Source: Thermodesulfovibrionia bacterium
GTDB taxonomy: Bacteria; Nitrospirota; Thermodesulfovibrionia; UBA6902
NCBI GenBank assembly: GCA_038918635.1
Contig: JBCKZY010000004.1
Span: 1 to 46,452, forward strand
Direction of reading: 5' to 3'
Length of the DNA: 46,452 nt
Positions 1,898 through 15,956 of the stretch are shown piece after piece. Both the position numbers and the translations under genes were made by a program. Every line of letters starts with the position of its first letter. Positions within the stretch are counted from its first letter, which is position 1. Below the pieces are notes generated by a model that was given only the letters and a program-made list of their open reading frames with translations, was not told where the DNA came from and searched no databases.

Positions 1898-2272
1898 GTC
1901 ATTCCCCCGACTTTTCGGGGTCAAGGATCGCTGGAACCACTCCAGTTCTTCCCCGTAACCTGTCATTCCGGCTTGCCCGGAATCAAAGAGGAGTAGGATT
2001 CCGGACAAGCCGGAATGACAGATTTTATGAAGAAATGAACTTGAATACCCCGTTTTGTAAACGGGGATGAAAAGTTCTCCTCTCAAGTCTCCCCCTTTGG
2101 AAAAGGGGGATTAAGGGGGATTTTACGAATAATTTCTTTTAATAATCTCCCCTAGCCCCCTCGCCTCGTGGCGAAGCAACGGGTCTTTGCCAAAGAGGGG
2201 AACAGACTGAATTATCATTAATAATTTTATTTCTTTTTGATGTCCTGCCTACCGGACAGGCAGGCCCGCCTT
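1898..2272. repeat. Cluster of REP-like intergenic palindromes
   Basis: 24-bp arms at 1961-1984 and 1997-2020 (TGTCATTCCGGCTTG(C/T)CCGGAATC, 1 mismatch). Also CCCCGTTT-tgt-AAACGGGG at ~2049-2067, CCCCCTTT..AAAAGGGGG at ~2091-2109, an interrupted CCCCTCTTTGCCAAAGAGGGG at 2156-2200, and CCTGCCTACCGGACAGGCAGG at ~2245-2265. Confidence 0.8.
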
Positions 2273-2401
2273 GTAGGTGGGGAGATTCACTTTGCCCCTC
2301 CTGCAGAAGCTGGCCTGCAGGTTCAGTAAAGACGGAATTTTTGAAATTATATTTCGTTCCCTTTGTGCCTTCCTGTCCCGAGTCTGTTTTCGGGGTGTGC
2401 C

Positions 2402-4681: not shown

Positions 4682-4826
4682 TGACTAAAATAACTTTGAC
4701 TCAAAAAATAAAGAACTTAAAGACCTATTATTAAGTATAACTATTTTTCAGCCTGTTTTGTGCCTCTAAACCTGCTTTGAGTCTGTGTAAGCTCGCCTCG
4801 CTTCGGCGAAGCGGGTCAGTGGCTAA

Positions 4827-5340: not shown

Positions 5341-5436
5341 GGTTCCAAGGGGTCGAGCCTGCCTGCTCGCCTCGGCGAAGCGGGCTGGCAGGCAGGGAGT
5401 CAAGGATTCATCCCGAATAATCGGGACAGGTGGGAC
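5341..5436. repeat. Octamer-type array (GGTTCCAA/GGGGTCGA/GGAGTCAA/GGATTCA) with nested palindromes
   Basis: CCTGCCTGC[TCGCCTCGGCGAAGCGGG]CTGGCAGGCAGG at 5358-5396 and TCCCGAATAATCGGGA at 5411-5426. Confidence 0.7.
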
Positions 5437-6062: not shown

Positions 6063-7082
6063 ATGATATACAGAGCGATTAAATACCATGTGTTTCTACT
6101 TTTGATGCTTTTGATGTTTTCAATGTCATCTACTTCATCATCTGCTTTGGAGAACTTTGACGAATGGCTCTCTGGCCTTCGGACAGATGCAATTGCCAGA
6201 GGTATATCAGTTGATACTCTTGATGCCGCTCTTAAAGGGCTGAAACCTGTTCCGCGTGTAATTGAACTCGACCGCAGACAGCCGGAATTTACACAGGGCT
6301 TCCGGGAGTACCTCAATGCAAGGGTTTCAGAGAACCGGATAAAGACCGGGCAGCGACTACTCAGGGAACACAGTGACCTTCTTGAAAAGATCAGGGTTAA
6401 ATACGGTGTGCAGCCCCGATTTCTTGTCGCGATATGGGGGCTTGAGACAAATTTCGGCAGTTATACCGGAGGTTTTCAGGTTATCGATTCACTGGCAACT
6501 CTCGCGTATGATGAAAGGCGAAGCAGTTTTTTTCGTAAAGAACTGCTTAACGCGCTTGTTATTCTCGATGAAGGACATATTAACGTACAGGATATGAGCG
6601 GTTCCTGGGCGGGGGCGATGGGGCAGGTTCAGTTTATGCCGTCCTCTTTTGCCCGTTTTGCGGTCGATGCGGATGGTGACGGCCGTAAGGACATATGGAA
6701 CAGTCTTCCCGATATCTTTGAGTCAGCGGCTAACTATCTCGCCGGTTCGGGCTGGAACCGCGGTTATATCTGGGGCAGGGAGGTGAAACTGCCTTCCGAT
6801 TTTAAAGCGGAGACCACAGGGCTGGATACGGAAAAGACGCTTGTCGGGTGGCAGGAATTGGGTATACGCCTCAAAGACGGTAGAGACCTTCCTTCAGAAG
6901 ACATAAAAGCCTCTATAATTATGCCTGCAGGAGATGACGGTCTGGCATTGCTTGTATATAAAAACTACAGGGCCATCATGAAATGGAACAACTCCCACCA
7001 CTATGCTATTTCGGTCTGTCATCTTGCCGACAGGTTGATCGGGAAGGGGCCTTTGCAGGGAAGGGGCGCTTTTTCGGAATAG
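6063..7082 (+). CDS. Lytic murein transglycosylase (MltB/SLT_2-like, family 3)
   Basis: Signal-peptide-like N-terminus, VAIWGLETNFG (catalytic Glu), GSWAGAMGQVQFMPSS, the DADGDGRKD EF-hand-like loop, SAANYL and WNNSHHYA. Confidence 0.93.
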   Translation: MIYRAIKYHVFLLLMLLMFSMSSTSSSALENFDEWLSGLRTDAIARGISVDTLDAALKGLKPVPRVIELDRRQPEFTQGFREYLNARVSENRIKTGQRLLREHSDLLEKIRVKYGVQPRFLVAIWGLETNFGSYTGGFQVIDSLATLAYDERRSSFFRKELLNALVILDEGHINVQDMSGSWAGAMGQVQFMPSSFARFAVDADGDGRKDIWNSLPDIFESAANYLAGSGWNRGYIWGREVKLPSDFKAETTGLDTEKTLVGWQELGIRLKDGRDLPSEDIKASIIMPAGDDGLALLVYKNYRAIMKWNNSHHYAISVCHLADRLIGKGPLQGRGAFSE

Positions 7083-7527: not shown

Positions 7528-7711
7528 ATACTTTGTTTACATTCTAGAACGTTGAACCAAAATAGAATGTTTGCCTTGTGGAAAAACGATAAAAGTCTTG
7601 GTCAAGAAAGACATCGCTTTGAAGTATGCCTAATAGTTATTTAACAGTTACCTGATGATATCAGACAGTTTTAAGTCTGTCAAGGAAACAACAAAATACA
7701 TGGGTTAATAA

Positions 7712-7865
7712 TTGATGCACTCGTAAAAAGTCATGGGATGGCTAAGTAAAAATTTCGATATACAAGGCGTAGTCTGTTTTTAAGACCGAGACTATACATA
7801 TAGTATGTCGAGGATTTCAAAATGCGCTACAACGCAGTAGATCGAAATTTTTACGACGCCATCAA
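7712..7865. mobile_element. MITE-like element, 154 bp, with ~21-bp imperfect terminal inverted repeats and a TAA target duplication
   Basis: Left end TTGATGCACTCGTAAAAAGTC; right end reverse-complemented TTGATGGCGTCGTAAAAATTT. TAA at 7709-7711 and 7866-7868. No ORF inside. Confidence 0.75.
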
Positions 7866-7917
7866 TAATTGAAACATTGTATTTTGAGGCAGGATAAAAA
7901 ACAAGAGAAAGAAAGCT

Positions 7918-8970: not shown

Positions 8971-9026
8971 AAGTTACTAAGTTACTAAGTCATTGAGTTA
9001 CTGAGTTGCTAAGTTGTTGAGCTGCT
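8971..9026. repeat. Tandem octamer array (AAGTTACT consensus, 7 units) at the 3' end of the four-helix-bundle gene
   Basis: aagttact aagttact aagtcatt gagttact gagttgct aagttgtt gagctgct. Confidence 0.85.
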
Positions 9027-9389
9027 CTTTTTGAGAGAGGCAATATAGGAATTCAGAATCTTCAAAAGTTCATATGCATCTTTCTTATAATTATTACAAA
9101 TATTTTCATCTATATACTCTTCATCAAAACACTCATTGAAATCATCTATTAATTCAAATAAAGAACCTCTCGATTGTCTGCAATATTGAATATTCTCTTT
9201 ATAATGAAAACGACCATATCCTTCTGCTATATTGTTTGTGAGAGAAAGCTTTGCCCTTCTCATTTGATCTTTTAATCTGAATTTTTCAATTTCCGGCAGT
9301 TGTTTTATCAGTTTACTGATTTTTCTGCTAAATTCTCTTGCTTTTTGATAAACGAATAATTCTTCAACACTTCGTATCTTTTTGTCCAT
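9009..9389 (-). CDS. Four helix bundle protein (23S rRNA intervening-sequence protein / bAvd-like family)
   Basis: L.VYQKA, LPEIEKFRLKDQMRRA..S...NIAEGYGR, YCRQSRGSL.E. Confidence 0.92.
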   Translation of the reverse strand: MDKKIRSVEELFVYQKAREFSRKISKLIKQLPEIEKFRLKDQMRRAKLSLTNNIAEGYGRFHYKENIQYCRQSRGSLFELIDDFNECFDEEYIDENICNNYKKDAYELLKILNSYIASLKKSSSTT

Positions 9390-9400
9390 CTGTTTTCTTT

Positions 9401-9465
9401 AATAACTTAATGACTTAATAACTTTAATAACTTAGTAACTTGATAATTTAATAACTCAGTGACTG
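9401..9465. repeat. Tandem octamer array (AATAACTT consensus, 8 units), inverted relative to the 8971-9026 array
   Basis: aataactt aatgactt aataactt (t) aataactt agtaactt gataattt aataactc agtgactg. Confidence 0.85.
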
Positions 9466-9482
9466 TGTAAGTATATTATGCT

Positions 9483-10485: not shown

Positions 10486-10866
10486 TAGCCACGAATTTAC
10501 ACGAATAATATATATATTTCCAGTGCTGTCCAAAATAATATAAGTTTCTAAAACTGATTCTTACAACAAAAGGCATTTGGATGTGTTAATCCACAATATC
10601 AAAATGAGGTTACCCCCTATGTCTCGTTTGATGTTCATTATGCTGTCCAGGATAATCATATCACATGATGAATAAACAATTATCTTAAAATCCCCCTTTC
10701 TCCCCCTCGGAACGAGCCTACTCGGCTTTTTCTCCGCACTCAGGCGGATTTGCCGAGGCGAAAAAGGGGGGCGAGCCGGAATGACAGAATAAAGGAAATA
10801 TCAGTAAGAATCTCCAGATATTAATACAAATTACTTTTCGTGAATATTCGTGCACATTCGTGGCTA
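10486..10866. mobile_element. 381-bp non-coding insert bracketed by 22-bp inverted repeats, with internal nested hairpins
   Basis: TAGCCACGAATTTACACGAATA (10486-10507) versus the reverse complement of 10845-10866, TAGCCACGAATGTGCACGAATA (2 mismatches). GC-rich hairpin block at ~10690-10787. Confidence 0.55.
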
Positions 10867-12290: not shown

Positions 12291-12350
12291 ATATTATCTC
12301 CGAATATTTATTAATACTTATTAGACTTTTCCGGCTTATGTATGGGGAAC

Positions 12351-12427
12351 CCTCCCCTAACCCCTCCCTTGTCGAAGCGACCCTTTGCGGAGACCCGCTT
12401 CGGGAGGGGAGGGGTTAGGGGAGGGTG
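12351..12427. repeat. GC-rich palindromic repeat (CCCTCCCC..GGGGAGGG type) with an inner CGAAGCG..CGCTTCG insert; left flank of the DUF559 cassette
   Basis: 12366-12409 is the reverse complement of 13039-13082 (44 bp, 1 mismatch). Confidence 0.8.
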
Positions 12428-12447
12428 ACTCAAACAATTTCCTCGTA

Positions 12448-13007
12448 TCACCTTTCTAATACGCCTTCCATATTAGTCAGCACCTCATTATTCCAGAACC
12501 TTAAGACCTTAACCCGCATATTGCATGAAGGATTCGGGTTCAGAGTGAATTTCGCACAGCAGGTTGCGTGATCGTCCGCGGAAGCATAGCCATAGCTATG
12601 GTTCAAGAGGGATCGTGCAAGATGCACAGCGAGATTTGCTTTGAAACCGGATAGGCACAAAGTGTAATCTCCCCTGCAACGTGCTTAGCCTGCATTTTGT
12701 CTTATTATCATGAAAATAACAGTTAGTCTATCTGCCGCCTTTATGCAATATGCGGGTTAAAGCCCTCCGAAGTGAGCCATGCGTCTCTTTCTTTGTCTTT
12801 AGTATTGTATGCGTGCTGCCCGCCGTCCGCCTCTATCACCAATGATTTCTCAAGACATATAAAATCAACAACATAATTGCCAATTGGCTGCTGCCTCCTG
12901 AATTTGAGTCCCTCCATCTGTTTTGCCCTTAAATGTCTCCATATCAGTTTTTCAGCATCTGTTTGACTTTTTCTAAGGGCCTTGGCTGTATTGACCAGCT
13001 TTTTCAT
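12448..13007 (-). pseudogene. DUF559 (Vsr-like / PD-(D/E)xK) endonuclease, interrupted by a 244-bp MITE
   Basis: AKALRKSQTDAEKLIW, KFRRQQPIGNYVVDF, EADGGQH and ERDAWL. Removing 12513-12760 restores EGF-KVLRFWNNEVLTNMEGVLE. A further likely frameshift lies near 12450. Confidence 0.9.
12513..12756. mobile_element. Non-autonomous MITE, 244 bp, 19-bp TIRs, TTAA target-site duplication (possibly IS1380-family derived)
   Basis: CCCGCATATTGCATGAAGG versus right end reverse-complemented CCCGCATATTGCATAAAGG. TTAA at 12509-12512 and 12757-12760. The empty site rebuilds the DUF559 frame. Confidence 0.88.
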
Positions 13008-13020
13008 TAATTCTGATACA

Positions 13021-13142
13021 CCCCCACCCTAACCCTCCCCCCTCCCGAAGCGGGTCTCCGCGAAGGGTCGCTTCGACAAGGGGGAGGGAACTTTTATATC
13101 ACTACCCTCGCACCTCAAAGGGGAGGGAACTTTTATATCACT
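13021..13142. repeat. Right palindromic flank of the DUF559 cassette plus a 23-bp direct repeat
   Basis: Inverted copy of the 12351-12427 unit. GGGGAGGGAACTTTTATATCACT occurs at 13081-13103 and 13120-13142. Confidence 0.8.
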
Positions 13143-15885: not shown

Positions 15886-15956
15886 TACATAGAGGGTTCA
15901 AGGATTCGAGGGTTCCAGGGTTCTTCGCCTCAGCGAATCCCGATACATCGGGAAAT

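Follow-up and report, generated by a model that had tools for sequence, protein, structure and literature searches.

A 46,452-nt window from a Thermodesulfovibrionia bacterium (contig JBCKZY010000004.1) carries three copies of a short GC-rich sequence that we call unit U. We found that U is a discrete repeated unit with a canonical length of 24 nt that enters DNA in one piece and without target-site duplication (TSD); perhaps it also leaves precisely as one unit. We take U to be a non-autonomous mobile DNA micro-element, a reading to which we assign a probability of about 0.6. The initial annotation of this stretch had described a tiny insertion that enters other repeats without duplicating its target. 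Its observation of a discrete repeated unit is confirmed, and its interpretation is supported by empty copies of the same hosts and by orthologous sites that differ by 24 nt. Mobile DNA is usually defined by the enzyme that it encodes or borrows; here, bacteria of many phyla carry a 24-base sequence that appears to move as a unit, with no partner that could be identified.

Unit U and its filled and empty hosts

The window is contig C4 of the source genome (G000; 1.93 Mb, 174 contigs, 43% G+C), to which contig positions below refer unless another genome is named. The pattern TCGCCTCG-N0-8-GCGAAGC matches the window at 2161, 4793 and 5367, each time on the + strand, and gave no match in 100 dinucleotide-preserving shuffles. 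Units of 18–23 nt had been reported at 2161–2183, 4793–4815 and 5367–5384. All three are present, but each starts one base further 5′ (2160, 4792 and 5366) and the canonical length is 24 nt. Because the right flank of hosts b, e and d begins with T, the unit must read CTCGCC...GCGGG; the base 5′ of TCGCC is C in 111 of the 113 cross-phylum copies among the matches listed. A tolerant pattern retrieved 89 copies from G000, and the reversed control pattern none. The length is exactly 24 nt in 74 of the 89 copies, and shorter deletion forms of 19, 21 and 22 nt also occur, the 19-nt form nine times. The unit comes as type 1, CTCGCCTCG-[A/C]TTCG-GCGAAGCGGG (~27 copies in G000), and as type 2, CTCGCCTCG-GG-GCG[A/G]AGC-AAC-[G/T]GG (~46 copies). 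Its freedom from stop codons in all six frames was left out as evidence because the estimated chance probability is ~0.5 for so GC-rich a 24-mer. Two sequences listed earlier as relatives of U were not confirmed as such: the one at ~15925 (TTCGCCTCAGCGAA) is a small hairpin module of another kind, and the reversed one at ~10748–10762 is at best a degenerate fragment without GCGAAGCGGG.

U occupies at least six unrelated contexts in G000, four of which also exist empty there. Host a is the perfect 20-nt palindrome CCTGCCTGCCGGCAGGCAGG (PAL20), split as CCTGCCTG^CCGGCAGGCAGG in ~15 filled copies and empty in 3–4; the perfect form stands empty at C1:12753, C21:20941 and C32:3843. Host b is split as GTCTGTGTRAG^TCWGTGGC and, at the 4792 copy, is a direct repeat with no palindrome. 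Host c is a dRS3/NTS-like hairpin split as GTCATTCCGG^CTTGTCCGGAAT, with ~8 empty arms and three filled copies. Host e is split as CCCCTAACCCC^TCTTTGCCAAAGAGGGG, and excision of 2160–2183 restores its hairpin (CCCC^TCTTTGCCAAAGAGGGG), as had been proposed; four empty paralogues align with a gap of exactly 24 columns. Excision of 5366–5384 likewise leaves a palindrome, CCTGCCTG^CTGGCAGGCAGG, which is one mismatch away from PAL20. Palindromes are not the sole targets: direct repeats, tandem repeats, coding DNA and U itself are also entered. No TSD was found at any filled/empty pair, paralogous or orthologous, in agreement with the initial annotation.

A relative of the same genus, G001 (coding identity to G000 ~90%), provides empty alleles at orthologous sites. 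At C1:44468, G000 is filled and G001 has identical flanks minus exactly 24 nt. At C34:14114, G000 is again filled and G001 has an empty host b beside the same gene start. At C2:48631, both genomes carry PAL20 with a type-1 U, and G001 has an extra 24-nt type-2 U between CTCG and CCTCG of the resident unit, with a junction microhomology of only ~1 nt in this nested pair. The empty-site alleles in relatives on which the earlier interpretation hinged are thus found in three orthologous pairs, each with a 24-nt difference, and the recurrence of the same difference in four host families and at these three sites argues for an independent unit rather than an integral piece of a longer repeat. G001 offers no clean empty orthologue of any of the three window copies: there, the whole composite is absent or the contig ends. 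At other orthologous sites, whole 145–190-nt composites have been gained or lost (L146, L156; C37). One orthologous U is kept in both genomes and is substitution-decayed in G000 (L145 versus C12); therefore some copies were in place before the two species diverged and evolve neutrally.

At least 35 viral contigs of IMG/VR contain PAL20 and none of the IMG/VR contigs contains U, so U and PAL20 are different entities. Furthermore, at C2:13218–13265 G000 has PAL20 with U, and G001 has an empty PAL20 8 nt away on its contig C120 (L205 ~1339–1400). In both genomes the palindrome follows G[C/T]GCC directly, so PAL20 seems to insert independently.

U also acts as its own host. In multi-unit loci, n CTCG words precede an equal number of 20-nt bodies (CCTCG...GGG) whose variants are often mixed; 3+3 arrays lie on C173 and C71, and 2+2 arrays on C9, C18, C155, C19, C39 and C15 and at C1:7434 and C2:69467. 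This arrangement is expected if each new 24-nt unit lands at the resident CTCG^CCTCG, and the orthologous site at C2:48631 is arranged exactly so. Loci that depart from it (C38, C19:14349 and C76) indicate that slippage and deletion occur too. Complete head-to-tail copies are found in other phyla (L036, L064 and L100).

One nesting level deeper, a second ~20-nt module, the bulged hairpin CTGTCTCGCCAGTAGCGGAC, lies inside type-2 U between CCTCGGGGC and GAAGCAACGGG (G000 C93:6985–7005, C3:58520–58540, C2:14040–14062, C153:~940, C2:70991 and C51:5363). Two IS91-family transposase genes (Zn_Tnp_IS91) are broken by PAL20 with U, at C26:10093–10728 and C1:15380–15480, so U also strikes other mobile elements; one of the interruptions appears to fall at the HUH motif (HPH/.../VHAIVTDG).

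Occurrence across phyla and within genes

For the cross-phylum set, exact TCGCCTCGNTTCGGCGAAGCGGG was scanned in one genome per GTDB species, giving at least 110 stretches and 113 U copies among the matches listed, to which the counts of 110 and 113 below refer. The labels of these metagenome-assembled genomes (MAGs) include many Patescibacteria lineages, Planctomycetota, Ignavibacteria/Melioribacter, Bacteroidota, Omnitrophota, Zixibacteria, Raymondbacteria, Bdellovibrionales, Nitrospirota and 'Gammaproteobacteria'. The flanks of the 113 copies are unrelated, bar a few pairs of related genomes, and within the same set PAL20 with U recurs as an identical 44-mer in several phyla. L034, labelled Bdellovibrionales, and L080/L120 (Parcubacteria/Moranbacteria) also have ~55 nt of right flank in common at 84–85% identity (GAATTCGCC-U-CTGCGGC...), a hint that they share a somewhat larger element or that bins are mislabelled. 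In four cases U splits a tandem repeat (L083/L091, L098, L076 and L087), and excising exactly 24 nt restores the period of (AAAATAC)n, (AACTTTC)n, (ATCAGAT)n or (CNTTCGTAA)n.

The distribution of U is patchy. U-bearing genomes outside Nitrospirota usually hold 1–13 copies and three Nitrospirota genomes 29–89. Of 40 relatives scanned with the pattern, the one in the same genus has 34 copies and three from another family have 29, 11 and 4, and U was found in none of the 23 other genera of its own family. Among 300 random Patescibacteria, a loose pattern matched 10 genomes versus 3 for its reversed control, and exact type 1 was present in 3–4; about 1–3% of random Patescibacteria thus carry U. 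Neither type 1 nor type 2 has a match in 2.9 million IMG/VR viral contigs, which rules out phages as the vector of U.

Of the 113 copies, 34 are located in long open reading frames (ORFs), inside the open frame, for example in genes for ValS, RecG-like helicases, PBP2 and IlvD. Being 24 nt long, U leaves the reading frame intact, and here it encodes the peptides SPRFGEAG, RLDSAKR, PASPNRGE or PLRRIEA. Compared with structure 1gax, the ValS of L038 has a 16-residue insertion exactly at U; for the IlvD of L017, comparison with solved structures gave no clean gap. In-frame insertion into genes, for which the initial annotation had proposed a test, was thus found. U thereby adds eight residues to essential proteins, and it is a source of false ORFs and loop insertions in the annotation of MAGs.

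Movement, candidate partners and rival explanations

The base before U is G in 63% and A in 19% of cases (G or A, 82%), and the base after it is C in 77% and T in 19% (C or T, 96%). The junction is therefore mostly purine^pyrimidine with no longer conserved word, and the left target words vary (TAAG, CCTG, CCGG, CCCC, CTCG, GATA and GTAA). U is also polar in position and orientation: in host c it lies at the 5′ stem-loop junction, in palindromic hosts it lies on the 5′ side of the dyad, and in PAL20 it lies at 8^12, read in its own orientation, in 35 of 36 cases. This coupling between position and orientation would imply a strand-specific step. The substrate would most likely be single-stranded DNA in which host and U are folded as hairpins, and composites of U and host arms are predicted to be strongly structured (z -2.6 to -4.3). 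Movement would be catalysed by an enzyme acting in trans, for which an HUH/Y1 enzyme like the REP-associated tyrosine transposases (RAYT) is a slightly better candidate than a small GIY-YIG/Ssn-like nuclease. Most of the copies within a genome would be secondary, arising as the U-bearing host repeat multiplies or as U is copied between members of the same host family, and between phyla U would spread horizontally.

Several observations weigh against this reading. The comparison of filled and empty alleles cannot by itself tell insertion from precise excision. The 35:1 count in PAL20 may include many copies that descend from one PAL20+U composite. A conserved tetranucleotide target, as used by IS200/IS605 elements, is lacking. 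Isolated U folds weakly (-4 to -7 kcal/mol, z -0.4 to -2.1), no better than shuffles, and the predicted fold differs between variants with no single conserved structure: one form pairs TCGCC with GGCGA around a bulged purine, and the CTTC variant is a blunt 9-bp imperfect hairpin. The CTTC loop variant is confined to host b and the GGGGCGGAGC variant is found in host e; therefore most copies would have come from multiplication of the carrier repeat or from copying among copies of the same host, and many are probably not independent insertions. In the G000 lineage, the independent filling of two orthologous host-b sites favours copying between host copies over carrier multiplication, and for the per-host variants copying from one homologous host to another is at least as good an explanation as transposition from a single source. 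Finally, as the initial annotation had noted, no mobilising enzyme is evident: gene-neighbourhood and co-occurrence searches tied none to U, and Y1, GIY-YIG and DUF559 genes are equally present in U-free relatives.

Three RAYT-like Y1 genes of G000 (C49:9182–10300, C23:18000–18700 and C172:1–1000; ~290–320 aa with a long C-terminal extension) are bracketed by inverted copies of a 25-nt repeat, AATGTCAATAGTCAAGCCTGACCCC (five genome copies), and not by U, and are rejected as its linked partner on account of this repeat of their own. In U-bearing genomes of the candidate phyla radiation (CPR), Y1 genes and U are on separate contigs or more than 10 kb apart. PF01797 (Y1) is present in 28 of 33 U-bearing genomes and also in 30 of 33 U-free relatives; within Patescibacteria it occurs in 15 of 18 U-bearing genomes versus 54 of 120 random ones (Fisher p=0.004), an enrichment for which clade or a general richness in repeats may be confounders. 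It is the sole positive statistical signal for any candidate enzyme, and it comes with no adjacency. Small GIY-YIG genes (89–91 aa) are wedged in tRNA genes at C159:150–1000 and C87:6100–7050, and also on C38 and C2; at C159 and C87 the 3′ part of the tRNA is duplicated downstream, with TCCCGA...TCGGGA-type hairpins and no U at the junctions. GIY-YIG genes are present in all 41 relatives and a small one occurs in 4 of the 110 U loci listed, always more than 3 kb away; these cassettes, flanked by other hairpins and not enriched near U, are rejected as partner. The GIY-YIG protein encoded at C85:3–317, which looks Ssn-like, has the generic GIY-YIG domain alone in Pfam; its gene lies at a contig edge, and its 450-nt downstream flank is without U.

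A core related to U had also been seen in the flanks of the window's DUF559 gene, but CGAAGCGGG (13048–13058) is a mere 9–11-nt resemblance inside another palindrome. G000 has eight DUF559 matches, several of them fragments. DUF559 is rejected as partner, as there is none in G036 (29 units, 91% complete) or G038 and it is present in many U-free relatives. The repeats that bracket the gene (window 12339–12436 and 13023–13087) are rich in GGGGAGGGG words. Genes with U on both sides are only housekeeping ones (tgt, argS, htpX, polA and cysK-like) and were likewise rejected as mobilisers.

The main rival explanation dispenses with a dedicated enzyme. While DNA is replicated or repaired, hairpin-forming repeats would undergo template switching or short-homology gene conversion with each other, a filled host copy acting as the template for an empty one, and rare horizontal entry, for example by natural transformation, would seed new genomes. 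The strictly host-bound variants, and the two host-b sites filled independently in spite of them, speak for such copying, as do the fast turnover of modules in intergenic regions and the lack of any enzyme gene that co-varies with U. We nevertheless judge this explanation rather unlikely, because U has copies in unique contexts (coding genes and the tandem repeats of other phyla) where there is no homologous filled template, its boundaries are base-identical in unrelated hosts, junction microhomology amounts to ~1 nt, and a generic process would not repeatedly yield one fixed 24-mer across phyla.

It is improbable that U is an integral segment of longer composites (PAL20+U, host e, host g or GTCATTCC...GGAATGAC) and that the empty forms are internal deletions. 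Whole composites are present or absent between G000 and G001, the PAL20+U 44-mer is shared by several phyla, and host g with U is common to G000 and G036. However, four unrelated host families and three orthologous sites lack the identical 24 nt and have no flanking direct repeats that would allow precise deletion, U stands alone in tandem repeats and genes, its flanks are unrelated in the 113 copies, and viral contigs have PAL20 alone; the orthologous 24-nt indels in particular largely refute this reading. We regard it as very improbable that U is a site with a conserved function, for instance a hairpin bound by a protein, a terminator or an RNA motif, kept by selection and not spread by mobility. 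Its letter-identity across phyla and its hairpin potential, especially with host arms, would suit such a site. Against it, U shows no preference for gene orientation (22 co-oriented with and 14 opposite to neighbouring genes) and occupies divergent, convergent and coding contexts alike, it is absent from 23 of the 24 genera of its own family and from ~97% of Patescibacteria, and one orthologous copy decays neutrally. U has no Rfam match, and only sub-threshold microRNA-like matches fell on the neighbouring long palindrome; the lack of orientation bias and of an Rfam family rules out a terminator or RNA function. An artefact of assembly or sequencing is barely credible. All 110 public matches listed are MAGs, with no isolate genome among them, yet their record names represent different assemblers and long-read closed MAGs, orthologous copies in two independent MAGs bear point substitutions, the 24 nt keep the frame, the ValS insert is a clean gap against a solved structure, and the reversed control pattern gave nothing.

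Returning to U as a mobile micro-element, we tentatively consider a wider possibility, which may well not hold: U could be one member of a cross-phylum 'micro-mobilome' of 18–36-nt hairpin units, together with PAL20, the TCCCGA...TCGGGA units and the U-nesting 20-nt CTGTCTCGCCAGTAGCGGAC. Such units might be written without TSD into the 5′ stem-loop junction of single-stranded DNA hairpins by a still-unrecognised activity of tiny nucleases or HUH enzymes, and might pass from phylum to phylum in groundwater and sediment communities without the help of phages, perhaps through DNA uptake. If so, they would be the smallest transposable units known.

Known small elements and other features of the window

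In its behaviour, U appears closest to the small dispersed repeats (SDRs) of heterocystous cyanobacteria, reportedly described by Elhai and co-workers in 2008. SDRs are said to be ~20–27-nt units that behave as mobile, single or in tandem, nested in repeats or hairpins and with no obvious transposase. U shares their character of ~21–27-nt nested units with filled and empty paralogues, a likeness in kind. SDRs are said to lie within one cyanobacterial group, whereas U is letter-identical across phyla, stands in frame in essential genes and inserts into itself at CTCG^CCTCG. Palindrome-associated transposable elements (PATEs), derived from IS200/IS605, have two different subterminal hairpins (left and right ends, LE/RE) and insert on the 3′ side of one fixed word of four or five nucleotides; U has just one hairpin and variable left target words. 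MITEs (miniature inverted-repeat transposable elements) have terminal inverted repeats and a TSD and measure ~50–500 bp, in contrast to U with its 24 nt and no duplication at any filled/empty pair.

Repetitive extragenic palindromic (REP) sequences and their doublets (REPINs) are short, GC-rich, imperfect palindromes, intergenic and oriented, that are thought to be processed as single-stranded hairpins by a Y1 enzyme acting in trans, without TSD (PMC3116915, PMC3733652), and one palindrome end bears a conserved tetranucleotide tag, GTAG or CGTC (PMC3733652). U has no such tag: all 89 copies begin with CTCG and end with GGG (reverse complement CCCG...CGAG). RAYT-like genes do exist in G000, which is a point of likeness, but they are flanked by another repeat, and U forms no REPIN doublets. 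Each REP family is bound to a lineage, whereas U crosses phyla and also lies inside genes.

Ssn is a tiny GIY-YIG nuclease that recognises the cross-phylum, oriented NTS/SRM (dRS3-like) hairpins as single-stranded DNA and cuts a few nucleotides 5′ of the hairpin (Chenal et al. 2025, PMC11893778); it was shown to cut DNA, not to move it (PMC11893778). G000 has many GTCATTCC...GGAATGAC repeats, some of which host U, and hosts c and d match the NTS/SRM type. U itself does not match the consensus CGTCATTCCCGCGMAVGCGGGAATCYRG (ATTCCC-N8-GGGAAT core with oriented flanks; PMC11893778), and no Ssn (cd10448) or GIY-YIG gene flanked by U was found, the Ssn-like gene on C85 lying at a contig edge. Rickettsia palindromic elements (RPE; ~100–150 nt, Rickettsia only) stand in frame in protein genes, where they add a peptide loop (PMC10969869). 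In-frame coding insertion is common to both, and with U at 24 nt and cross-phylum this is an analogy only. Yeast mitochondrial GC clusters such as GC42 are GC-rich palindromic mini-elements of 30–60 nt in AT-rich DNA with a putative target duplication (PMC4478555). Like U, they proliferate, merge or nest, and pass between species by an unexplained mechanism; they are organellar, longer and putatively duplicating, whereas U is bacterial, 24 nt long and has no duplication. A full-text search of the literature for the U sequence and related concepts found no description of it. U offers a concrete, orientable and easily synthesised substrate for the question, dating from the 1980s, of how tiny repeats (SDRs, REPs and GC clusters) move, and it is a possible marker of DNA exchange among unrelated members of subsurface communities.

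Table 1. Copies of U, their hosts and related features in the window
Feature	Position	Strand	Basis or remark
dRS3/NTS-like hairpin pair (GTCATTCCGGCTTG[CT]CCGGAATC), empty host c; elsewhere U follows CATTCCGG	1957–2024	.	sequence comparison
Host e, ~110-nt AT-rich repeat with hairpin CCCCTCTTT-GCC-AAAGAGGGG, U after CCCC	2109–2225	+	~12 filled and 4–5 empty genome copies
U, 24 nt, type 2, CTCGCCTCGTGGCGAAGCAACGGG, inside host e	2160–2183	+	pattern match and paralogue alignment, 24-column gap in four empty copies
Empty PAL20-like palindrome CCTGCCTACCGGACAGGCAGG	2244–2264	.	sequence comparison
Host b, direct-repeat motif GTCTGTGTAAG^TCAGTGGC with U; composite wholly absent at the orthologous site in G001	4781–4823	+	at least 15 empty and 10 filled copies in G000; orthologous host b stands empty at two other loci
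U, 24 nt, type 1, CTTC loop, CTCGCCTCGCTTCGGCGAAGCGGG	4792–4815	+	pattern match
Host a, PAL20-like palindrome CCTGCCTG^CTGGCAGGCAGG, U 2 nt left of the dyad	5358–5396	+	composite folds at -15.3 kcal/mol, z -2.6
U, 19-nt short form, CTCGCCTCGGCGAAGCGGG	5366–5384	+	pattern match
DUF559 gene	12741–13007	-	65-nt inverted repeats 12361–12425 / 13023–13087 around the gene; kinship to U is a 9–11-nt word
TTCGCCTCAGCGAA hairpin module, no U copy; recurs next to PAL20+U elsewhere (C54, L113)	15924–15940	+	sequence comparison

Other repeats are found in the same window. A ~70-nt element, TTTGCCCG...GGTCTGTAAAGGCGGAA, is common to two families of the order and lies at window 2290–2345, at C2:66880–66960 and C26:13330–13400 of G000, and at C2:4920–5020 and 6210–6310 of G036; its inner hairpin is U or, in the window copy, another filler (CTCCTGCAGAAGCTGGCCTGCAGG). 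A ~100–150-nt repeat with GATGGCGTCGTAAAAAGTCCGATCTACTGCGTTGCAGCG and terminal inverted repeats at window 7700–7880 has ~45 genome copies. An 8–9-nt AT-rich tandem array (TTAATAACT...) occurs at window 9398–9478 and 8971–9000, the inverted partners lying ~400 nt apart and bracketing the ORF at 9009–9389.

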